Numbered from the stretch's first letter, positions 3,995-29,611 are shown. The stretch is 64,000 nucleotides of DNA from an uncultured Acidobacteriota bacterium (GCA_963834645.1 CAWICP010000018.1:2534-66533); one strand, 5' to 3'. Notes: a model not told the origin generated them from the sequence alone. Numbers and translations are program-made.

Positions 3995-5114
3995 CTACAT
4001 GCCTTCGCCCGTCGTGCACTCCGTCACGAACGTCCTCTTACGCTTGTTCGGGTTCTCGATGATCTCGAAGAACTCGTTCAGGTACTTCTCGGTCGACCTG
4101 ATGTGCCCGGCTTCGAGCCCCAGGGCGGCGAGCGTCGCCGGCAGCGCGAGCAGTTCCGCCTTCTTCTCCAGGAACGGTGTGAGCGCCTGCTCCACGTCCG
4201 CCTCCGTCTTGCACGGCCCGCGCCAGCGCCGCTCCCTCACCGAGCTCAGGTTGAGGTCCTTGAACGGGACCGCGTAGTGCGTGTTGACGAGGCCGGAGTA
4301 GTCGAAGTCGTACGGCACGGTGAGGCGGACGCCCTTGGCGTCATCGATCATGATCACGTTGTGCAGCGCGAGGATCGAGTAGTCCGTGTTGGCGATCATG
4401 TACTGGAACAGCGACATGAACATCAACTGGTCCTGATCGACGTACCTGAACATCTGCCGGGGCACCGACAGCTCGCGCGCGTGCATCCGCTTCGCCAGGT
4501 CGTCGATGTCCTCGAAGAACAGGCCGAGCCGCGTGTCGGGCTTCTTGCCGGGCTGGCTGTCGGCGTAGGTCACGTTCGCGAGGCGCACGCGCAGGGAGTG
4601 TGGAGTCAGCAGGTTGTGCAGGCGGTTCGCCAGGTACTCCTTGAGCGTGTACTGCAGGTAGATGCCTTCGCTCTGGCAGTGCACGCCGAGCTTGAGGTTG
4701 CCGTGCCCCTCGAAGACGCGTGCCCTTCGTCCCGTCCTTCGGGAGTTCGAGGCGCAACGGCGCGAACTCGCAGACACGCGGCTTGCGGCGGGAGTGCCCG
4801 CGCGTCCGAAGCTGCATCGGAACGGGCGTGCCCGCCGTGCCGTCCTTCACGATCGTCAGGGTGCCGGGGTAGAGCTTCTTGCTGTCGACGTCCCGGTCGC
4901 GCTGGACCGCCTTCCAGTCGGCGGTGAGGGTGATCTCGATGGGCTCCTGGCTCGCGAAGAGCGGAAGCGCCTCGGCCTCGGCCTTCCGCTTCTGGAGCGT
5001 CGCCTCGTCGGGCGGCCACGGCTTCGGGGGCTTGGCCTGCTTCTCGGCCGCCGCGGCGGCCGGCTTCTGCGCCTGCGGACCCACGGCGGCCGTCTCGGCG
5101 CCCGCCAGCAGGGC
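3995..5114 (-). CDS. CotH-like (atypical-kinase-like) secreted protein, tandem unit B; no start codon of its own, one frame break near ~4750
   Basis: GPQAQKPAAAAAEKQAKPPKPWPPDEATLQKRKAEAEALPLFASQEPIEITLTADWKAVQRDRDVD...CEFAPLRLELPKDGTKGT continues in another frame as VFEGHGNLKLGVHCQSEGIYLQYTLKEYLANRL...LFQYMIANTDYSILALHNVIMIDDAKGVRLTVPYDFDYSGLV. The N-x-D...HN...P-Y-D-F-D pattern resembles CotH/HipA-type catalytic motifs. Stop at 3995. Confidence 0.5.
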
Positions 5115-8610: not shown

Positions 8611-10487
8611 TTGCAGCGATCGACAGGATGTTGCGAATGCGTCGCTGCCGTGCTGTGCCTGGGAACGGCGCTCGCGGCGCAGTCGCCTGCCGCGCGCGAC
8701 CTGCGCCGGACGGCGCTCGCCGGCGCCGCCCCGACCGCGGAGATCATCCGCCTCGACGTCGACGGCGACGGCCGGCCCGACATCCTCGAGCGCTGGTGGA
8801 ACGGCAAGCGCGTGCGGTGGCTGGACGAGAACGGCGATCTGTCGCCCACCGACACCAGGGGCGACCAGGTGGCGGACGTGCTCCAGGTGGACATGAACGG
8901 CGACGGCTGGTACGACGGCGTGACCGACCAGAACGTCAAGTGGGCCGACAACGACGGCGACGGCCGGCCCGACGTCCAGGCCTGGGCCACGCAGCCGCCG
9001 AGCTGGAGCGACGGCAAGTGGAGCACCAGCGAGTCGCACTGGATGCTGTTCCTCGACGTCGAGCAGGACGGCGTCCTCGGGTGGCAGGACTGGCGGACGT
9101 TCAACTTCGGCGACTCGAACTGGGACTACACCGGCACGCACGACTGGCTGCCCGACTACCACGGCGACGCGCTGTTCATGAAGATCCACCGCCCGCCCCA
9201 GGCGCTGCCCGACCCGCGCCTCAACTGGGAGAACCCGTTCGCCTTCTTCGACACCGACGGCGACGGCCTCACCGAGATGGGCATGCGGTGGCTCGACCCG
9301 ATGATGCCGGTTGTCAAGGGCCTGGCCCCGCTCTCAGGCGTGCTGAACGAGGCCTTTCTTACTCTTGATCTCGACAACGACTCGGGCAAGGGCAACGAGA
9401 TCGACTACGACATGTCGCTGCGCGGCTCGGGCGGCCCCGGCGTGCCGTACCAGTCCATGGTGACGGCCTACCCGGCCCTGCGCGGCAACCCGAAGTTCGA
9501 CGCGTGCTTCCAGTGGGGCAACTGGCGGCAGGTCGGCGAACTCAAGTTCATGCCGCACGCGCGCAGCTACGACGCGTTCTTCACGGCGGGCTGGACCTCA
9601 ACCTACCTGGTGTTCGACGAGGACGATGACGACCATCGGTGGGAACGGGTGGAGATGTACTACCCCATGCACGGGTTCGGCGGGCCCGAAGGATATCGAC
9701 ATCTGGTCGGTGAAGAAGTGGCGGCAGGGCAACTACGCGAACCTGAACATGGCCGCCGAAGGCGAGAAGCCCGGCCTCGGCGGGCACCCGCAGGCCGACT
9801 CGCTCGGCGACCGCGGCGAGTTCGATCGCGACAACTCGGGCGGCGGCAGGCTCTACGTCGGCGTCTTCGATCGCAAGCTGCACCTGGCCGGCGCGGAGTG
9901 GGGCGCATGGATCGTCGACAAGCACGCCGAGTTCCACGGCGGCTGGAAGGCGCCGTCCCCGCGCCCGCTCGCCACGAAGGTCGAGGAGGTCGTCCGCTAC
10001 ACCGACGCCGACGGCAACGGGTTCCTCGACACGGTCGAGTTCGACTACGACGGCGATCGCGCGTTCGACTTCACCGTCTCGCTCCTGGACTACAAGACGC
10101 CCGGCGGCGGCGCCCCTGATCAGGCGGCGATCATCGACACGCGGGCGGCGGGCTGGAAGGGCCTGCACGAGGCCTATACGAGCGCGGCGAACCAGTCGTG
10201 GCGGGAAGCGCTCGCCGTCTACCGCGCGGCGTGGAAGCGCGGCCTCACGACGCCCGACATGGACACGCTCGCGAACGCCGCGTCGGTGGCGGAGCGCCAC
10301 GCCAACGCCTACTGGATCAAGGAACTGGCGTTCCGCGCGATCAGGTCGCGGCTCGGCGAGGCGCGGGCGGCCGAGCCGTCGCAGGCCGCCACCCTCGACG
10401 CCCTCGAGAAGGACCTGACGCGGCTGTACCATCCTCGGCCGCTTCGACGAGTACGTGGCGGGGATTGCGCGAGTGCCCGGGGTCTGA
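8611..10487 (+). CDS. Large secreted protein with repeated DxDGDG (FG-GAP/EF-hand-like calcium-binding) motifs; frame breaks near ~9690 and ~10430
   Basis: Signal-like CVAAVLCLGTALAAQ. Motifs DVDGDGRPD, DMNGDGWYD, DNDGDGRPD, DTDGDGLTE, DADGNGFLD and DYDGDRAFD. The tail reads LYHILGRFDEYVAGIARVPGV with TGA at 10485-10487 after a +1 frame step. The start (TTG 8611 or ATG 8628) is uncertain. Confidence 0.55.
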
Positions 10488-10508
10488 CGACTCGGGACTC
10501 GGGCTCGC

Positions 10509-18339: not shown

Positions 18340-19088
18340 CCCCGGGAGCCCTCGCGCGCGTCGTCGACGCGCTCGTCAGCGTCGTCATCGCGCCCGAGTG
18401 CGCCGCGTGCGGCCTGCCCCTCGACGAGCCCACCGCCGGCCCCGTGTGCCGGGCGTGCTGGGCGGCCGTCCACTGCTTCCCGCCGCGCTCCGGCTCGCCC
18501 GACCGGGATCGCGCGCAGCGCGCGCGGGCGCTCCCGTGCCTCGCCGATTCCGCGCGCCCTCGCCGCCGGCCCGTACGAGGGACGGCTGCGCGACATCATC
18601 CACGCCTTCAAGTACGACGGGCGCCGCACGCTCGCGCGGCCGCTGGCCGCGCTGATGCGCGACGCCGGAGCCGGACGTCCTCGACGGCGCGGACGCCGCC
18701 GTCCCCGTGCCGCTGCACTGGCTGCGCCGCCGCCGCCGCGGCTTCAACCAGGCCGCGCTGCTCGCGTCCGGCCTCGGGCTGCCCGTCTGCCACGCGCTCC
18801 GCCGGTCGCGCCGCACGCGCGCCCAGGCCGAGCTGCCGGCCGGCGAGCGCCACGTCAACGTCGCCGGCGCGTTCGCCCTCGCGTGGCCGTACCGATTCCG
18901 CTGGCTGGGACCCGTCACGGCGCTCGCGCGCACGCCGGCGCGCCTCGACGGGCTCACCGTGGTGCTGGTCGACGATGTGAGCACGACCGGCGCCACGCTG
19001 GACGCGTGCGCCCGGGTCCTCGCTGGCCGCGGGCGTGCGCGAGGTGCGCGCGCTTACGGCGGCCCGAGTCGCCGCGCGACCGCGCTAG
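18340..19088 (+). CDS. comF: ComF family phosphoribosyltransferase-like protein; several frame breaks, start uncertain
   Basis: N-terminal zinc-finger-like CAACGLPLDEPTAGPVCRACW. Then YEGRLRDIIHAFKYDGRR, PLHWLRRRRRGFNQAALLA, ERHVNVAGAF and the PRTase motif VVLVDDVSTTGATL. The tail AAGVREVRALTAARVAARPR ends at TAG 19086-19088. Confidence 0.7.
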
Positions 19089-19673
19089 CGACGTCGGCGG
19101 CGACCGCCTCGACGGGGCGCGCCGCGTCGATCACGATCCACAGCAGATCCTCGGCCTGGCGCCGGTAGCTCGCCCGCACGCGGCCGAGCATCGGCAGGTC
19201 GCTCTCGAACCTGTCGCGGTTCTCCGCCTTGCGGGCCGCGGCCACCTCGGGCGCGATGTCGAGCAGGATCGTCACGTCGGGCTGCGGCAGGTAGGCCTGC
19301 ACGCTCAGCAGCCAGTGCGGATCGAGTCCCTGCGCCTCGCCGTACGCCACGCTCGACGCCAGGTAGCGATCGCAGATCACGACGCGGCCGGCGGCGAGCC
19401 ACTCCTGGATCTTCGGCTTCCACTCGTGGCGGTTGGCGATGTAGCAGCAACTGGATCGTGTCGGGGCCGAACTCGCGCTCGCCGTGCAGGCCCTTCCAGA
19501 TTTCCTGCGCCGATCGGCGTCGCGTAGTCGGGAAACGCGAGCGACTCCACCTGCCGGCCGCGCGGCTTCGAACCACTGGCGCAGGAGCCGCGCCTGCGTC
19601 TGCTTGCCGCTCTGATCGAGGCCTTCGAAGACGATCGAGCGAGTCCGTGTCGATCGAGTCGTACGTCCTGCAT
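19054..19673 (-). CDS. tmk: dTMP (thymidylate) kinase; at least two frame breaks (~19450-19620), start approximate
   Basis: SIVFEGLDQSGKQTQARLL (P-loop region), FPDYATPIGAEIW..., then YIANRHEWKPKIQEWLAAGRVVICDRYLASSVAYGEAQGLDPHWLL...PDVTILLDIAPEVAAARK. Confidence 0.75.
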
Positions 19674-20926
19674 TCCGAGAGCCAGCATGTCCGTCCGAAG
19701 CGTCTGCCGCTCGCCGGATCGACGCGCCAGCGCGCCGCCGTCGACGAGCACCTCGGCCGGCATCCGGCGGCGGTTGTAGTTCGACGCCATGACGAACCCG
19801 TAGGCGCCCGCGTCGAGCACCGCGACGAGGTCGTCGACCTCGACCGGCCCGAACTCGCGTTCGTGCCCGAGCGTGTCGCTGGTCTCGCAGAGCGGCCCGA
19901 CGACTTCGCACGTCCTGCACGTCCCCCGCCCGCGGCGTCACGGCGACGATGCGGTGGAACGCGTCGTAGAGCATCGGGCGGATGAGTTCCGTCATGCCCG
20001 TGTCGAGGATGACGAACCGCGGGCAGCCCGGCGTACGCCTTCGTGTCGGCCACGCGGCCCACCAGGATGCCGGCCGGCGCCGCGAGGAAGCGGCCCGGCT
20101 CGAGCAGCAGGTGCAGGCCCGTCTGGCGCACGGCCGGCAGCACGGCCGCCGCGTACTCGGCGGGGCTGCCGTGGGCGCCGCCGTCGTAGGCGATGCCGAG
20201 GCCGCCGCCGAGGTCGATGTGCTCGAGGCGGAGCCCGGCGTCCCGCACCTCCCTGGCCAGGTCGGCCAGGGCCCGCGCCGCGCTGCCGAGCGGCTCGACG
20301 TCGAGGATCTGCGATCCGAGGTGGACGTGCAGGCCGACGAGCTCGAGGCCCGGCTTGCCGGCCAGGCGCCGCAGCAGCGGCGCGGCGGCTTCGATGGGCA
20401 CGCCGAACTTGTTGGCGCGCCGCCCGGTCGAGATGTGCGCGTGGGTGTTCGCGTCGATGTCGGGGTTCACGCGCAGCGCGACCCGCGCCTTCACGCCCCG
20501 CGCGCGCGCCAGCGCGTCGATGCGGTCCGCCTCGCCGTCCGACTCGATGTTGATGGCCTTCACGCCGAGCGCGACCGCACGGTCGAGTTCGTCGCGCGTC
20601 TTGCCGACGCCGGTGAACACGATCTGTCGACGGGTCGAACCCGGCGCGCAGGGCCGCTTCGATCTCGCCGCCGGAGTTCGCGTCGGCGCCGGCGCCGAGG
20701 CCGCGGAGCAGGCGCAGGATGGCCAGCGTCGAGTTCGCCTTCAGCGCGTAGTGCAGCGTGTGCGGGTAGCCCTCGAAGGCCGACGTCGAGCGCGGCGCAG
20801 GCGTCCCGGATGAGCGCCGGCGCTGTAGATGTAGACCGGCGTGCCGGTGCCGGCGGCCATCTCGGCCACCGGGATGCCGTCGCAGGTGAGCTGTCCGTCA
20901 CGCAGAGTGAATCCGGTCACGATCAT
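19650..20926 (-). CDS. lysA: Diaminopimelate decarboxylase; at least four frame breaks, 3' end approximate
   Basis: MIVTGFTLRDGQLTCDGIPVAEMAAGTGTPVYIYS, ...YALKANS..., FTGVGKTRDELDRAVALGVKAINIESDGE...LRVNPDIDANTHAHISTGRRANKFG...VGLHVHLGSQI...IDLGGGLGIAY, and LDAGAYGFVMASNYNRRRMPAEVLV. Confidence 0.85.
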
Positions 20927-20952
20927 GGCATCTTATCCGAGGCGCCGCGGGT

Positions 20953-20981
20953 TTGACACCCCCCACCGCTCACGGTATTCT
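20953..20981 (+). promoter_or_regulatory. Candidate sigma-70-type promoter for the sigma-factor operon
   Basis: TTGACA (20953-20958), a 17-nt spacer, then TATTCT (20976-20981), about 20 nt upstream of ATG 21002. Identified by sequence pattern only. Confidence 0.4.
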
Positions 20982-21001
20982 GCGGCGTTACTGCGTCTGC
21001 G

Positions 21002-21640
21002 ATGACCACGATGGACCCGACCACCACGCCTTCGGAACCCGACACCCTGATCGAGCGCTGCCTGAAGGGCGACCAGCAGGCCTGGGAGCAGATCGTCCGC
21101 CAGCACTGGCGGCAGGTGTTCAACGTCGCGTACAAGTTCGTCGGCCGGCACGACGAGGCGGAGGACCTGACGCAGGACGTCTTCCTGAAGATCTTCAAGT
21201 CGCTCGCCACCTTCGACCGGCGCGCGAACTTCCAGACCTGGCTCGTCAGCGTCAGCCGCAACCTCTGCATCGATCACTACCGCAGCGTCCGCAAGGAGCG
21301 GGAGACGATCAACCGCGACGTGAACGCCGACGACCTGTCGCCGCATGTCGGTCGAGATCAGCGCCGCACGTCGCCCTCGAGCGCCGCGACCTCGCCCAGG
21401 AGCTGCGGCGGGCGCTGCAGCGAGCTGCCCGAGACGCTGCGGACGGCGGTCGTGATGCGCGACATCCAGGAGCTGTCCTACCAGGAGATCGCCGACCGGC
21501 TGCAGCTGCCGGAAGGCACCGTGAAGTCGCGGATCAACCGCGGCCGGCACGAACTTGCGCGGCAGATCACGCGTCTCAGAGAAAAGGGCCTGGGCCCGCG
21601 AGCGGCCGCCGGGCAGGCCGGCCGCCGTTCCGGAGTATGA
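21002..21640 (+). CDS. ECF-type (regions 2 and 4 only) RNA polymerase sigma factor; internal out-of-frame stretch ~21345-21422
   Basis: Region 2: WEQIVRQHWRQVFNVAYKFVGRHDEAEDLTQDVFLKIFKSLATFDRRANFQTWLVSVSRNLCIDHYR. Region 4: LPETLRTAVVMRDIQELSYQEIADRLQLPEGTVKSRINRGRHEL. The stretch between reads better in the other frame (APHVALERRDLAQELRRALQ). Confidence 0.85.
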   Translation: MTTMDPTTTPSEPDTLIERCLKGDQQAWEQIVRQHWRQVFNVAYKFVGRHDEAEDLTQDVFLKIFKSLATFDRRANFQTWLVSVSRNLCIDHYRSVRKERETINRDVNADDLSPHVGRDQRRTSPSSAATSPRSCGGRCSELPETLRTAVVMRDIQELSYQEIADRLQLPEGTVKSRINRGRHELARQITRLREKGLGPRAAAGQAGRRSGV

Positions 21641-21986
21641 GCATGAAGCTGACCATCGACCGCGTCCGCGACATCACCGTCGTCCGCGTCGCCGAGAGCC
21701 GGCTGATGTACCCGCTGCTGTCCGACTTCTCGGCCGCCGTCGCCGGCCTCATCGGCGCAGGCGAGACGCAAGGTGATCGTCGACCTCACGCCCGTCGTCT
21801 ACGTCGACAGCGCCACGATCGGCTGCCTGATGGACCTGTACCGCCAGGCCGCGGCCGCCGGCGGGTCGCTGAAGCTCGCCGGCGTGCAGAAGCGGGTCGA
21901 GACGATGCTGACGATGACCGGGGCGCACAACTTCATCCAGTTGTACGCCGACGAAGCCGACCGCGCTGGCCAGCTTCGAGGGGTAG
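21637..21986 (+). CDS. STAS domain protein (anti-sigma-factor-antagonist type); extra bases near 21766 and 21961
   Basis: ATG 21637 overlaps the sigma stop (ATGA). MSMKLTIDRVRDITVVRVAESRL...GAGETKVIVDLTPVVYVDSATIGCLMDLYRQAAAAGGSLKLAGVQKRVETMLTMTGAHNFIQLYADEADALASFEG, with TAG 21984-21986 after removing two inserted bases. Confidence 0.75.
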
Positions 21987-21988
21987 CC

Positions 21989-22272
21989 ATGCGGACCATC
22001 AAGACCACCACCGGCGCCGAGATCCCCCTCGACGGCGACCTGCTGACCGTCATGGAGACGCTGTACCACGAGGTGACGGCGCGCAGGGAGCTGGAACGGT
22101 CGTTCGAGGACATGGTGCGGGAGATTGCCCACCTGATCGACCAGATGACCGACGAGGAGCGCAACACCTACCTGCAGGAGAGCCTCTTCCTGAACAGCGT
22201 CACCTACGAGAACGAGCGGCTCGGCGCCTACATGCGGAAGCTGGCCGGGGGCGCGAGACGCCTCGGCGCCCG
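21989..22272 (+). CDS. Small hypothetical helical protein (about 94 aa as read; no in-frame stop before the next gene)
   Basis: The ATG lies 2 nt after the STAS stop. MRTIKTTTGAEIPLDGDLLTVMETLYHEVTARRELERSFEDMVREIAHLIDQMTDEERNTYLQESLFLNSVTYENERLGAYMRKLAGG. I recognise no family. The stop is presumably lost to a frame error, or the ORF is an N-terminal extension of the radical SAM gene. Confidence 0.35.
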
Positions 22273-23645
22273 ATGGCGCTCCATCACCTGGCTACGCGTT
22301 TCACCTGCTCCTGGCCGTGGAGCACCCTCGTCATGCTCTGCGACGGCCGCATCGTCTGCGGCTGCGCCGACCCGTACGCGAAGCGCGTGCTGGGCGACAC
22401 CCGCACGTCGTCGCGTCCACGACATCTGGACCGGCCCGACCATCGCCGCGCTGCGCGACGACCTGAACCGCGGCGGCTCGACGTTCTGCGGCGACTGCCC
22501 GCTGAAGCTGCCGCTCGGCGAAGGACGAGGCCCCGCCGCGAGCGCGGCCTCGACGTGCCGCCCCAGCCCTCGCGCCTCTACGTCGAGTGCACGGCCGCCT
22601 GCAACATCTCGTGCTTCCAGGCCTGCTGCGCGCCGGAGACCGGCATCACGCGCACGCGCCAGGCCGGCATGCTCGACTTCGATCTCTTCACGCGCGTCAT
22701 CGACGAGGCCGGGCCCTCGCTCGGGCGCGATCGACTTCTTCAACTACGGCGAGGCGTTCCTGCACAAGCGCGCCGTCGAGATGTGCGAGTACATCAAGGC
22801 GACGTTCCCGCACATCTACCTCTACACGAGCACGAACGGCCTGGCGTTCACGGAGGAGTCGGCGCGGCGCCTGGTGCGCTCGGGCATCGACGAGGTGACG
22901 TTCTCGATCGACGGCGCGTCGCAGGAGACCTACGCGCGCTACCGGCAGCGCGGGCGATTCGACGTCGCCGTCGGCCAACCTGCGCGCGATGGCGGACGAG
23001 AAGCGGACGGCCGGCCGCGACGTGCCCGTCATCAACTGGCGCTACATCCTCTTCACCTGGAACGACAGCGACGAGGAGATGGAGCGCGCGCGGGAGATGG
23101 CCGCCGAGATCGGCGTCGATCGGCTGACGCTGGGAGATCACGGATCATCCCGAGGACGCGTTCTCGCGGCGGTTCGTGCCCGGGTACGCCCGACTACGAG
23201 CGCATCCGGCACGAGGTCTGGGACACGAACAACCTCGGCAACGCGATTCCCGGCGCGACGCCGCGGGCGCGCATCGAGGTGCCCGGCGCCGTTGCCGGGG
23301 CTGCCGCTCATCGCGCGGCGCGGGACGCACGCTCACCGTGCAGACGCGCGTCCACAACCTGTCCGACGCGCCCGTTCCCGCGCGAGGCCAGCTACGGCCG
23401 GCGCCTCGTGCGCCTCGGCGCCCAGCTGTGCGACGCGGGCGGCACCGTCCTCGAACCGCGACTACGCCCGGGCCTGGCTGCCGCACACCATCGGCGGCGG
23501 CGAGCAGGCCGAGGTGCCCATCGAGATCCCCGCGCCCGCCGAGCCCGGCCGCTACCAGCTGAAGTTCGACCTCGTCAGCGAGGGCATCGACTGGTTCGAG
23601 GCCTGCGGGTCGGAGACGACGCTGAAGCCGCTGCGGGTCTGGTAG
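22273..23645 (+). CDS. Radical SAM enzyme with an N-terminal SPASM-like Cys module and a C-terminal beta-rich domain; about six frame breaks
   Basis: MALHHLATRFTCSWPWSTLVMLCDGRIVCGCADPYAKRVLGDTRTSSVHDIWTGPTIAALRDDLNRGGSTFCGDCPLK, then the core LYVECTAACNISCFQACCAPE...IDFFNYGEAFLHKRAVEMCEYIKATFPHIYLYTSTNGLAFTEESARRLVRSGIDEVTFSIDGASQETYARYRQRG. The tail reads ...INWRYILFTWNDSDEEMERAREMAAEIGVDRL...WEITDHPEDAFSRRFVPGTPDY...GRYQLKFDLVSEGIDWFEACGSETTLKPLRVW. Confidence 0.7.
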
Positions 23646-23912
23646 GCGCCTGACGGTGCGGTTCGGCCGGCGAGCACATAGTCCACCGGACAGCCGCGTT
23701 CTGCAGGTACACTCGAACTACACTCATTGCACCCAGCCGCCGCGCCGCTTCCGCCGGCAACGCGCTGGCACCTTCATCGGCCGGCCGCGTGGCGGCTCGG
23801 ATTCACCCGTGCTGCTCGTGGCAGCCTCCTGACCGTCTTCCAGCGTCAAACGCCGATGGGTGCTGCCGGTCGTGGGGCCGACCGCCAGCACAGCCGCTCT
23901 GAGGAGCACCCG

Positions 23913-25547
23913 ATGTCTGCCGTGCCATCCTGGAATCCGGCGAGTCTTCCCTATCCGCTCCCCGGCTTCCTGCCGGACCTGCTCGAGTGCGTCGCCGAGG
24001 GCGTCATCGCCGCCGACCTCGAGGGGCGGTTCGTCCTGTTCAATTCGAGCGCCCAGCGCATGCTCGGGCTCGGGCCTCACGACGTGCCGAGCGAGCAGTG
24101 GACCGAGACGTACGGGATGCTTCCTCGAGGACACGGTGACCCCGTTCCCGCCCGAGCAGGTGCCGCTGGCCAGGGCGATCCGCGGCGAAACCGTGCAGGA
24201 CTGCCTGGTCCACATCCGGAACCCGAAGGTGCCAGACGGCCTCTGGATCAACGTCAGCGGCACCCCGCTCCGCGACAAGGACGGCGTGCTGTACGGCGGC
24301 GTGGCCGTGTTCCGCGAGGTGACCGGCGAGCGGCGGACACTCGAGCGGACCCGCCTCCTGTCCGCCGTCGCCGAACAGACTGCCGACGCGGTCGATGATC
24401 ACGGACCGGCAGGGCGTGATCGAGTACGTGAATCCCGGCGGTCGAGAAGATGACCGGCTTCGCGCCCGACGAACTGGTCGGGCAGACGCCGCGGGTCCTC
24501 CGGTCCGGCCTGCACACCAACGCCGACTACGCCGGCATGTGGGCCACGCTCATGAAGGGCGACGTGTTCCGGGGCACGCTCATCAACCGGAAGAAGGCCG
24601 ACGGCGCGATCTACTACTCCGAGCAGACCATCACGCCCATCCGCGACTCGGCCGGGCGCGGTGTCACGCTTCGTCTCGGTCGGCAAGGACCTCACCGAGG
24701 TGCCGGGCCTCGCTCGAGCGATCCAGCAAGCTCGACCTGGCCCGCTCGGTGCAGCAGCGGATGTACCCGACTGCGCCTCCCGGCGACTGCGGATTCGACG
24801 TCGCCGGCACGGCCATCCCCGCCGACGAGACCGGCGGCGACTACTACGACTATCTCCAGCTGCCCGGAGGCGGCCTCGCGCTGGCCGTCGGCGACGTGAG
24901 CGGGCACGGGTTCGACGCGGCGCTGCACATGGTCCAGGCGCGCACCATGCTGCGCGCGGTCATCCCGACGCAGTCCGACCCGGGCGCGGTCCTCGCCCAG
25001 ATGAACAGCCTGCTCCTCGACGAACTCGACGAACAACCGGTTCATCACCCTGGTGCTGGCGTGCCTGCATCCGCAGTCCCGCACGCTGCGCTACGCGAGC
25101 GCCGGCCACACGACGGGCTACCTGCTCGGCGTCGTGCGGGCGCGCTCAAGGCCGAGCTTGCGCAGCACGGGCGTGCCGCTCGGGCCTGATCCCCGGGGCG
25201 CGCTTCGAATCGGTCGCGATCGCCGCGGCTCGAGGAGGGCGATCATCGTCGCGCTCGTTCACGGACGGGATCGTCGAGAGCGTCGACCGATGACGCCTAC
25301 TACGGCCCGGAGGGCGCCCTGAAGCGACCTCAGGCGCCACCGCCACGAGCCGGCGGCGGACATCGTCCAGCACGTCTGCCAGGCCGCGCAGGCGTTCGCC
25401 CGGGGCCCGCAGACCGACGACATGACCATGGTGGTCTGCAAGGTCGGCGCCCGCCCAGGCGATCGCGGCCGATGCCCGCGTCCTGAGCCGTGCCGGCCTG
25501 TACAGACCCAGGGCCGCGGTTGCTCAGGCCGCGGCCCCGGTCTCTGA
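23913..25547 (+). CDS. PAS-PAS-PP2C (SpoIIE/RsbU-type) serine phosphatase; about four frame breaks, 3' end uncertain
   Basis: PAS 1: LLECVAEGVIAADLEGRFVLFNSSAQRMLG...INVSGTPLRDKDGVLYGGVAVFREVT. PAS 2: VMITDRQGVIEYVNP...MTGFAPDELVGQTPRVLRSG...INRKKADGAIYYSEQTITPIRDSAG. PP2C: VQQRMYPTAPPGDCGFDVAGTAIPADETGGDYYDY...LAVGDVSGHGFDAALHMVQARTMLRA...LFTDGIVES...TDDMTMVVCKV. Confidence 0.75.
25511..25537. terminator. GC-rich hairpin between the convergent PP2C gene and lpxC
   Basis: GGGCCGCGG (25511-25519), a 9-nt loop, then CCGCGGCCC (25529-25537). Followed by the polypurine tract GAAGGAGGAGGAGGGAGGAG. Confidence 0.35.
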
Positions 25548-25569
25548 AGGAGGAGGAGGGAGGAGTCGA

Positions 25570-26469
25570 CTACCCGGCTTTCACCGGGACCGCCGCCGGC
25601 ATGAACCCGGCGGCCTGCTCGGGCACCAGTTCCACCACCTTCCACGCGTCGCGCTCTTCGAGAACCCGCTTCGCGAAGGCCGTGTGCAGCGCGTGGCCGG
25701 CCCGGTGGGCCACCAGGTGCCCGATGATCGGATAGCCCACCAGGGACAGATCCCCGATGGCATCCAGGATCTTGTGGCGCACGAACTCGTCTTCGTACCG
25801 GAGCTGGTTGTTCAGCACGCCGGTCTCGCTCAGCACGATGGCGTTCTCGAGCGACCCGCCCAGCGCGAGCCCCTGCTGGCGCAGCAATTCCACCTCGTGC
25901 AGGAACCCGAAGGTCCGCGCCGGCGCGATGTCGTCGACAAACGTCTGCTCGTCAATCCGCAGCGTGTGCGACTGGTGCCGCAGCAGCGGGTGATCGAAGC
26001 TGATGCTGTAGGTGACCTTGAAGTAGTCCGACGGGTACAGCGAGATCAGCTTGTCGCCGCGCGACAGCGTGATCGGGCGCAGCACCTTCAGGTACCGCCG
26101 CGGCGTCGCCAGCGTCCGGAGCCCGGCTTCCTGGATCAGGTAGACGAACGGCGCCGAGCTGCCGTCCATCACCGGCACTTCCCGGTGGTCGAGCTCGACA
26201 ATCGCGTTGTCGAGCCCCATGCAGGTCATCGCCGCCAGCAGGTGCTCGACCGTCTCCACCACCGCGCCGTTGTGCGACAGGCAGGTGGCGTGGTTGGTGC
26301 CGCCGACATGCGCGACCGACGCCGGAATGTCGATGCCGAGGTCGCTGCGCCGGAACCGGATCCCGGTGTCCGCCGCCGCGGGCTTCAGCGTCAGGTTGAC
26401 TTTGTGGCCGGAGTGGAGGCCGATACCGGCACAAGCCACCTGGCGTCGAAGGGTCCGTTGAAACGTCAT
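25570..26469 (-). CDS. lpxC: UDP-3-O-acyl-N-acetylglucosamine deacetylase
   Basis: Intact 299-aa ORF. MTFQRTLRRQVACAGIGLHSGHKVNLTLKPAAADTGIRFRR...VETVEHLLAAMTCMGLDNAIVELDHREVPVMDGSSAPF...TFGFLHEVELLRQQGLALGGSLENAIVL...FVRHKILDAIGDLSLVG. Confidence 0.95.
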   Translation of the reverse strand: MTFQRTLRRQVACAGIGLHSGHKVNLTLKPAAADTGIRFRRSDLGIDIPASVAHVGGTNHATCLSHNGAVVETVEHLLAAMTCMGLDNAIVELDHREVPVMDGSSAPFVYLIQEAGLRTLATPRRYLKVLRPITLSRGDKLISLYPSDYFKVTYSISFDHPLLRHQSHTLRIDEQTFVDDIAPARTFGFLHEVELLRQQGLALGGSLENAIVLSETGVLNNQLRYEDEFVRHKILDAIGDLSLVGYPIIGHLVAHRAGHALHTAFAKRVLEERDAWKVVELVPEQAAGFMPAAVPVKAG

Positions 26470-26542: not shown

Positions 26543-26571
26543 ATAATCTGCTCTAAATATATATCGAACAA
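26543..26571 (-). promoter_or_regulatory. Candidate lpxC promoter inside an unusually AT-rich ~45-bp patch
   Basis: On the minus strand: TTGTTC (26571-26566), a 17-nt spacer, then GATTAT (26548-26543). The surrounding sequence ctctaaatatatatcgaacaatatcttacag stands out in a ~70% GC context. It lies ~75 nt upstream of the lpxC ATG. Confidence 0.3.
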
Positions 26572-26707
26572 TATCTTACAGACATTACAGCCGCCTTCGA
26601 CCAACGGCAGAACGCTCGTTCTGTGGCCAAACAGCCACGGCCTCTCTGGAACAGAGTGTGGCGATTCAGCCACACCCCTGACCCATGGTACCATCCTGCG
26701 TCCGGCA

Positions 26708-29559
<2,852 letters not shown>

Positions 29560-29611
29560 TGCAGGGACAATCGGGCCGTGCCCAAACATGAAATTCTACC
29601 ATGCGGGGCGC

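Follow-up and report, generated by a model that had tools for sequence, protein, structure and literature searches.

In a 64,000-nucleotide (nt) stretch of DNA from an uncultured Acidobacteriota bacterium (GCA_963834645.1 CAWICP010000018.1:2534-66533; hereafter the window, meaning the whole stretch) we have studied the region 21002–25547, in which the gene of an extracytoplasmic function (ECF) sigma factor is followed by those of a STAS protein and of a small protein of 89 amino acids (aa). These three genes form a unit that is conserved over the Vicinamibacterales. We propose that the small protein is the partner of the STAS switch and, at the same time, the anti-sigma factor, the trio acting as a sigma-control module; which of the proteins bind each other and in which direction control runs are what we infer here, and we give this reading a probability of roughly 0.4. 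ECF sigma factors are, as a rule, kept in check by anti-sigma-domain proteins of their own and, to our knowledge, STAS control of sigma factors has so far always been found together with an RsbW-type kinase. A conserved ECF sigma–STAS–small protein unit without either type of regulator would add a new type of wiring to both fields.

Conservation of the three-gene unit

A genome scan with an eight-sequence alignment, taking one genome per GTDB species, gave 261 genomes with a relative, from which 80 loci were scored with clean proteins. The gene of the small protein was present in all 80 loci and the complete set of sigma factor, STAS protein, and small protein in 76, the other four being cut by contig ends. 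In these loci, which come from Vicinamibacterales species, the unit is always found between lysA (syntenic in nearly all 80) and lpxC (syntenic in the 80). Spacing within it is tight: the sigma and STAS genes overlap or are separated by 2 nt, and the ATG of the small gene lies 1–4 nt after the STAS stop in 67 of the 75 loci scored, which implies a stoichiometric co-expression of the kind seen in sigma/anti-sigma sets. The mean pairwise identities over 56 species were 68% for the sigma factor, 72% for STAS, and 68% for the small protein, compared to 72% for the radical SAM enzyme encoded downstream, 62% for LysA, and 73% for LpxC. Judged by these identities, the module is under housekeeping-grade constraint and conserved like its essential neighbors. 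With a conservation equal to that of LpxC throughout the Vicinamibacterales, a group common in soil and little investigated so far, the module is probably in charge of a central program of stress response or physiology.

Two more genes, for a radical SAM enzyme and a PAS-PAS-PP2C phosphatase, follow the trio in the window, and the initial annotation had taken the five as a single circuit whose linkage should recur in related genomes. The sigma–STAS–small part of that linkage does recur (76/80), but the full order does not, the radical SAM gene being present in 57 of the 80 loci (and visibly lost from some of the others) and an intact phosphatase gene in only 3. The conserved unit is therefore one of three genes, not five, and the five-gene circuit is not maintained in relatives.

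Outside this core, a relative with 41% identity keeps lysA followed by the sigma–STAS–small arrangement, and distant Acidobacteriota (44–48% identity) keep the STAS–small pair without an adjacent sigma factor (L008, L091, L093, L010, and L094; L and P numbers are our labels for loci and proteins). It is this persistence in distant lineages that makes STAS and the small protein the invariant relationship of the system. The STAS proteins of the distant pairs are only ~30% identical to those of Vicinamibacterales and keep the DS motif described below, and the pairs are found beside DnaB and a hybrid histidine kinase, a GT87-like protein and RecD2, a sodium:solute symporter (SSF), or a CDF transporter. 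Compared with L004, the small protein of L091, L008, L093, and L010 is better conserved (44–48% identity) than its STAS partner (28–34%). In L008 (3134–8560) the STAS and small genes lie 175 nt apart, and their neighbors are the gene of a hybrid kinase of 1000 aa (HDOD-PAS-HisKA-HATPase-receiver) and, on the opposite strand, a radical SAM/SPASM gene of conventional type.

These distant pairs can also be read in another way, namely that STAS and the small protein are a self-contained output module with a non-sigma target (compare SypA, RbaV, or HmpV), in which the small protein would be the target or effector and the sigma factor would be merely co-transcribed or upstream. Pairs standing without an adjacent sigma factor among unrelated genes (CDF transporter, GT87-like, RecD2, SSF) are in keeping with it, as is a small protein better conserved than STAS (44–48% vs. 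~30%), which would be expected of an effector under its own constraints, and STAS proteins outside the canonical scheme whose targets are unknown have been described (PMC8256260). However, the sigma gene is fixed directly upstream (overlap or 2 nt) in 76 of 80 loci with no other anti-sigma candidate near, and an ECF sigma factor without any linked regulator would be unusual (general knowledge; PMC7826278), so that we regard such an output module as quite unlikely.

Gene layout and sequence quality

The window has a G+C content of ~70% and contains many single-base insertions and deletions (indels), with frame shifts in all five genes of the region 21002–25547. In the open reading frame (ORF) reading of the window, uvrA (26553–29589, − strand) and lysA (19085–20926, − strand) are likewise frame-split and, since these housekeeping genes are broken too, we consider the frame errors as assembly noise and not as gene decay or pseudogenization. 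Over the whole window, the indel pattern is typical of an unpolished long-read assembly. The window proteins were first stitched by hand and then replaced with the clean orthologs of our reference locus L004, located on a 2.0-Mb contig and corresponding to the same stretch as L011 (CAWEJS010000002.1, 721315–737584), and the gene limits in the window were set by tblastn of these clean L004 proteins. The resulting features are the following.

20953–20981, + strand: sigma-70-type promoter candidate (TTGACA at 20953–20958, 17-nt spacer, TATTCT at 20976–20981), a consensus match only
21002–21640, + strand: ECF-type sigma factor, ~210 aa (Pfam; tblastn with the L004 protein covers query residues 4–209; three indels, net zero, at ~21340–21420)
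21637–21986, + strand: STAS protein, 113–115 aa (Pfam STAS; frame errors near 21763–21770 and near 21960–21980)
21989–22257, + strand: small conserved protein, 89 aa (homologs; stop repaired by alignment to six relatives, T lost after 22255)
22273–23645, + strand: radical SAM enzyme, 453 aa in relatives (Pfam SPASM and Radical_SAM; tblastn match over three frames)
23913–25547, + strand: PAS-PAS-PP2C (SpoIIE-type) phosphatase, ~518 aa in relatives (Pfam; many frame errors)
19085–20926, − strand: lysA (diaminopimelate decarboxylase), frame-broken, divergent left boundary (pieces match the Orn_DAP_Arg_deC gene of L001 and L004)
25570–26469, − strand: lpxC, intact 299-aa ORF, convergent right boundary (LpxC Pfam domain in L001 and L004)

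All five co-directional, closely packed genes that had been annotated in the region are thus present, both by Pfam on the frame-repaired proteins and by reading of the sequence, and profile hidden Markov model (HMM) searches with the repaired proteins recovered the sigma, STAS, radical SAM/SPASM, and SpoIIE domains expected of them. The 267-nt gap ahead of the phosphatase ATG at 23913 is correct, and the ATGA in which the sigma stop overlaps the STAS start is found at 21637–21640. The STAS start is probably the ATG at 21643, which gives a stop–2 nt–ATG arrangement, since Met3 is invariant in relatives and residues 1 and 2 are not. The STAS stop TAG at 21984–21986 followed by the ATG at 21989 matches the clean relatives, where the rule is TAG-CC-ATG. 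The small ORF, in contrast, had been described as ~94 aa running straight into the radical SAM ATG and has to be corrected to 89 aa with a stop and a spacer of ~15 nt. In six relatives the TAG stop of the small gene lies 8–20 nt before the radical SAM start, and the comparison of GCG-AGA-CGC in the window with GCG-TAG-GCG in L015 indicates that the window lost its stop through a 1-nt deletion (T, at 22256). The small ORF is accordingly not an N-terminal part of the radical SAM protein, since all clean relatives carry the TAG stop and the spacer.

The small protein

The search retrieved 7286 homologs of 89–90 aa, the nearest ~90% identical, which at 50% identity clustering reduce to 269 representatives, many of them fragments; the STAS family, with 6141 matches, is of similar size. 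The named homologs are annotated as hypothetical and come from Vicinamibacterales, every named source belonging to the Acidobacteriota, and the protein matched no Pfam or NCBIfam family. On the strength of these homologs, we consider the small ORF a real, independent, and highly conserved gene of a new family.

An AlphaFold2 (AF2) model built from a 17-sequence alignment (predicted local distance difference test, pLDDT, 88; predicted template modeling score, pTM, 0.67) predicts a beta-hairpin at residues 3–13 and helices at 18–33, 39–51, and 55–88. The protein has no cysteine, is confidently modeled as globular and helical, and is cytoplasmic. Foldseek against PDB gave no match below E 0.8, and the family profile against PDB sequences none below E 0.19. 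As PDB holds complexes of RseA, RsiW, ChrR, RskA, and NepR, none of which was matched, the small protein has no recognizable anti-sigma domain. Two candidate similarities were discarded. The protein P0150 (3944 aa, 29 repeats) is a compositional coiled-coil match, and the possible mimicry of the STAS phospho-loop/helix alpha2 by the N-terminus of the small protein, where MAFFT placed IPLDGDLLTVMETLYHEV on VYIDSATIGCLMDLYRQA twice, obtained an hhalign probability of 0.1% (E 0.53).

The sigma factor, its promoter, and the STAS protein

The frame-repaired sigma protein matches Sigma70_r2 (1.7e-20), Sigma70_r4_2 (4.5e-18), and Sigma70_ECF in Pfam. There is no Pfam match for region 3, i.e., the factor has regions 2 and 4 only, as had been annotated, and lacks the group-3 architecture (regions 2, 3, and 4). 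Its nearest PDB relatives are SigW (5WUQ, 2.4e-28), SigE (5.6e-26), and RpoE (9e-22), and its best NCBIfam relatives are SigW, AlgU-like sigmas, SigE, and RpoE.

The TTGACA-17-TATTCT element previously noticed ahead of the sigma gene proved to be the sole sigma-70-type match in 20800–25700 (4.9 kb), agreeing with the consensus at 10 of 12 positions against a chance expectation of 0.2. The same scan predicted no intrinsic terminator, and an Rfam scan of 20500–26000 gave nothing at E up to 0.1. The hexamers are identical in the close relatives L011–L016, L018, and L021, while in most of the remaining loci an extended −10 (TGnTATCAT or TATGAT) stands in this position and no obvious ECF-type promoter is seen, by consensus matches only. 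On such matches, a promoter of housekeeping type and not of the autoregulated ECF type fits constitutive transcription combined with post-translational control.

The second gene encodes a SpoIIAA/RsbV-class STAS protein: the frame-repaired product matches PF01740 (1.4e-14), and the closest PDB entries to the family profile are SpoIIAA (1TH8_B, 6e-11, a structure with SpoIIAB), TM1442, and RsbV (6M36_B). The motif D57-S58-A59 is invariant in 77 orthologs, and the DS motif is also kept in four divergent STAS partners, as DS(A/F). We take S58 to be the phospho-serine position of SpoIIAA and, as read from its sequence, the protein is a single-domain STAS with a conserved putative phospho-acceptor serine.

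Search for a linked kinase or anti-sigma factor

The SpoIIAB sequence used as kinase query was checked against PDB, where it recovered 1TIL ("Anti-sigma F factor") at full length with E 2e-68 and also RsbW (6M36); a second, unvalidated query was an RsbW sequence. No GHKL kinase of RsbW/SpoIIAB type was found in the 64-kb window (best phmmer E 0.6), no HATPase_c gene in the operon of the clean contigs L001 and L004, and no RsbW-like kinase linked in 94 loci (1.17 Mb, ~8 kb each side). The only GHKL match over the 94 loci was a hybrid histidine kinase in L018, which indicates that the query is able to detect GHKL domains. When the slot before lpxC was scanned for kinases, only one Hanks kinase-TPR gene was seen, on the opposite strand of a single locus (L016). 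Anti-sigma-domain proteins were equally missing as linked genes in the 94 loci and in the window.

The absence of an anti-sigma kinase claimed in the initial annotation thus holds after frame repair, in the window and in the 94 loci, as a statement about the neighborhood only. Its view that the anti-sigma position is taken by STAS plus an unrecognizable helical protein agrees with what we find, with no classical anti-sigma domain here or in the clean relatives. It had also named in advance what would speak against it, namely a gene order not conserved in relatives, a kinase or anti-sigma factor appearing, or a small ORF that was an artefact; for the trio, none of these was found.

The phosphorylation of S58 would require enzymes from elsewhere. 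The serine is invariant in the ~95% of species without a linked phosphatase, so that phosphatases encoded in trans, and likewise kinases, are to be expected if it is used, and we consider unlinked kinases and phosphatases for S58 likely. This raises the possibility of a canonical partner switch with dispersed genes, in which an RsbW-type GHKL kinase located elsewhere would be both the anti-sigma factor and the STAS kinase, leaving the small protein as an accessory (modulator, chaperone, or stabilizer). The invariance of S58 in spite of a phosphatase linked in only ~4 of 80 loci suits such an arrangement, since trans partners are needed if the serine is used, and so does the reach of the search, which covered ~8 kb per side plus the window. 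Moreover, the characterized single-domain STAS systems, canonical or not, all include an RsbW-type kinase, and the known partners of SpoIIAA/RsbV-class STAS proteins are all GHKL proteins (PMC8256260). Yet anti-sigma factors of RsbW type are known for group-3 sigmas or sigma66 and not for RpoE-like ECF factors (general knowledge), and a dispersed kinase gives no account of a 90-aa protein kept beside STAS in every lineage, even without the sigma factor. Nor does the literature, in its main text, mention such a mode: that of the ECF classification 2.0 (Casas-Pastor et al., 2021) contains no STAS- or RsbW-linked group, and there as in the main text of a review of non-canonical ECFs partner switching is given for EcfG/NepR/PhyR only and STAS goes unmentioned. 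We found no paper on sigma regulation in Vicinamibacteria. Overall, we judge the dispersed canonical switch unlikely.

Proposed mechanism

In the classical operons a STAS gene is directly followed by that of its binding partner (rsbV-rsbW, spoIIAA-spoIIAB). We propose that the small protein occupies here the role of RsbW/SpoIIAB, i.e., that it would be the direct partner of STAS and would hold the sigma factor inactive, without kinase activity. The module would be transcribed from a housekeeping-type promoter; unphosphorylated STAS would bind the small protein, by which the sigma factor would be freed, and STAS would be turned off when a kinase from another locus phosphorylates S58. In the lineage of the window, the PAS-PAS-PP2C phosphatase would have been recruited to a place next to the trio, where it would sense redox state or a ligand and turn STAS back on. 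There are precedents for a new anti-sigma class without sequence similarity to the known ones, in RsbN (PMC6101532), and for a STAS protein phosphorylated by an unlinked Hanks kinase, in the action of PknD on Rv0516c (PMC1847690). The most specific version of the proposal, a kinase-less STAS switch of the Vicinamibacterales (reduced in other Acidobacteriota) in which a 90-residue protein of new fold would, besides being the obligate partner of STAS, serve as anti-sigma factor to an RpoE-like ECF sigma, is a possibility that we would still hold as doubtful.

Several observations weigh against the small protein being STAS partner and anti-sigma factor. It is unlike any known anti-sigma domain in HMM and fold searches, and the existence of STAS–small pairs without an adjacent sigma factor means that the pair may act on something else. 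The kinase search extended over ~8 kb on each side and the 64-kb window, and an RsbW-type kinase elsewhere in the genome is possible. A tethered STAS–linker–small AF2 model (P0137) reached a pTM of 0.58, with the junk linker modeled as a helix and ~15 residues missing from the start of the small protein, and speaks neither for nor against binding. Finally, the mirror-tree partial correlations (sigma–STAS 0.33, sigma–small 0.27, and STAS–small −0.06) were no better than those of housekeeping controls. Apparent natural STAS–small fusions, which would have served as Rosetta-stone proteins, were rejected, P0137, P0130, and P0141 being out of frame at the junction (frame-error artefacts) and P0477 a chimera.

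If the proposal is true, the small protein would represent a fourth structural class of ECF anti-sigma factors and the sigma factor would be the first STAS-controlled one of ECF type, and a family of ~7,000 members annotated only as hypothetical would gain a function. With ~410 residues in total, the trio is small enough for direct testing by co-expression, pull-down, or structure determination.

The radical SAM enzyme and the phosphatase as accessory genes

The radical SAM gene follows the small gene in the 57 loci that carry it, mostly at −4 to +47 nt. No intact copy was found in 21 of the 78 species with a complete locus, among them a Luteitalea genome, and in these lpxC usually comes directly after the small gene, whose product is unchanged. 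Remnants in L071 (8215–9238) and L086 (3773–4099) show a recent loss from the locus. The gene is a lineage-specific, frequent, and probably co-transcribed accessory to the trio.

The enzyme contains a radical SAM core (Radical_SAM, 3.8e-10) and an N-terminal SPASM domain at aa 12–76 (9.2e-08) in Pfam, and its gene has six or more frame errors in the window by reading of the sequence. No NCBIfam model reached its cut-off, the best one being TIGR04317 (2e-28, 99.5 vs. a cut-off of 380 bits), and the best matches are maturases. The iron–sulfur motif at 22588–22629 reads C-TAA-C-NIS-C-FQA-C-C (CX3CX3CX3CC) and not CX3CX2C, with cysteines conserved in 55 orthologs; the SPASM/twitch part is located at the N-terminus (22273–22500), and there is an extra C-terminal beta-rich domain (~23300–23640). 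The orthologous group, of 453 aa, is 73–93% identical. One ortholog, P0340, matches the NBR1-like Ig family PF16158.

The small protein might be the substrate or partner of this adjacent enzyme, as a RiPP-like (ribosomally synthesized and post-translationally modified peptide) or protein-modification pair regulated by the sigma factor and STAS. Maturase genes typically have a small ORF directly ahead of the one for the SPASM radical SAM protein, the best NCBIfam matches of the enzyme are maturases, and the order STAS–small–SPASM/radical SAM recurs in L094, a lineage of 45% identity. On the other hand, the enzyme is missing in those 21 of 78 species without any change in the small protein, and none of the alignment columns of the sigma factor, STAS, and the small protein follows whether its gene is there; with the small protein kept without the enzyme and no enzyme-specific column, a role as substrate is unsupported. 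The small protein, cysteine-free and modeled as globular helical, does not resemble a leader–core peptide, and no RiPP recognition element (RRE) or PqqD-like domain was detected in the enzyme by Pfam or NCBIfam. We consider such a pair very improbable. With the same lack of a tracking residue, the earlier suggestion that the radical SAM enzyme could modify one of the partners is not supported.

The phosphatase matches SpoIIE (3.4e-45) and two PAS domains in Pfam, and its DVSGHG, FTDG, and DDMT motifs are readable. Intact copies of its gene occur in L001 and, among the 80 loci, in three: L012, L014, and L011 (the same stretch as L004). A remnant in L015 (9902–10234) shows a recent loss; it is not at the locus in the remaining ones (~95% of the species). 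The PAS-PAS-PP2C gene is a lineage-specific addition. The second PAS domain (~24340–24700) matches models of NifL (2.5e-17), DibA (2.6e-28), and YtvA/LOV (1.4e-8) and has GQTPRVLRSG at the site of the LOV flavin-binding cysteine, so that this cysteine is missing; from such matches it may be a sensor of redox or flavin type. The 267-nt spacer between the radical SAM and phosphatase genes is not conserved among relatives. In L011 (~9700–9760) and L012 (~4170–4230) the spacer before the phosphatase shares a TTCGTCAAATCTGAT...TAT motif, and in L001 (~10480–10500) it contains TATAAT, so that transcription of the phosphatase gene may start from a separate promoter.

The interval that separates the module from lpxC is a hot spot of variable gene content, with a Hanks Ser/Thr kinase-TPR gene in L016 (11024–13453, − strand), DUF1295 genes in L001 (9638–10372), L016, and L021 (9664–10404), a B12-radical SAM plus a PEBP gene in L017 (2006–5501), TonB_C in L031 (3118–3864), and a second ECF sigma factor on the opposite (minus) strand in L078, L082, and L090. 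Elsewhere on the reference contig, L004 has an RHH-PIN toxin–antitoxin pair (4310–4983) between a comF-like gene and tmk, which is absent from the otherwise syntenic L001.

Comparison with known systems

We class the module as a partner-switching variant outside the RsbV/RsbW family because neither a linked GHKL kinase nor a group-3 sigma factor, both of which were looked for, is present. With RsbV-RsbW-sigmaB and SpoIIAA-SpoIIAB-sigmaF (with RsbU and SpoIIE as inputs) it shares the STAS class and its putative phospho-serine, the order of STAS followed by the presumed partner, the tight translational coupling to a sigma gene and, in the lineage of the window, a SpoIIE-family PP2C phosphatase with sensory domains. 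It differs from them in having no linked GHKL kinase or anti-sigma gene and a 90-aa protein of a new family after STAS, in an ECF sigma factor whose gene comes first and not last, and in a phosphatase that is off the locus in ~95% of the species. The Bordetella Btr system also has an ECF sigma (BtrS) encoded beside a PP2C phosphatase (BtrU) and a STAS protein (BtrV) but, unlike the module described here, it includes an RsbW-type kinase (BtrW), controls type III secretion and not sigma availability (PMC8256260), and has no equivalent of the small protein.

The classical ECF pairs (RpoE-RseA, SigW-RsiW, and SigE-RseA of Mycobacterium tuberculosis) contain the sigma factors most similar in sequence to ours. 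In them the +1 gene encodes an anti-sigma-domain protein, whereas here it encodes STAS, followed by the small protein, and neither of these two has an anti-sigma domain, a zinc motif, or a transmembrane segment. As for the radical SAM/SPASM maturases (TIGR04317 of the tungsten cofactor, PqqE, anSME, and those of sactipeptides), the downstream enzyme is similar in its core, its Cys-rich SPASM, and the small ORF upstream, but has the SPASM at the N-terminus, the CX3CX3CX3CC motif, a C-terminal beta-rich domain, and a small protein that is independent of the enzyme.

The closest functional analogy to the mechanism that we propose is EcfG-NepR-PhyR of the Alphaproteobacteria (ECF15), where an ECF sigma factor is held by a small, soluble, helical, and non-enzymatic anti-sigma factor (NepR) that is titrated by a phospho-regulated antagonist (PhyR). 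The taxon is a different one (here Acidobacteriota), and NepR and the small protein are non-homologous. The antagonists differ as well, PhyR being a sigma mimic plus receiver phosphorylated on aspartate and ours a STAS protein for which we propose serine phosphorylation.

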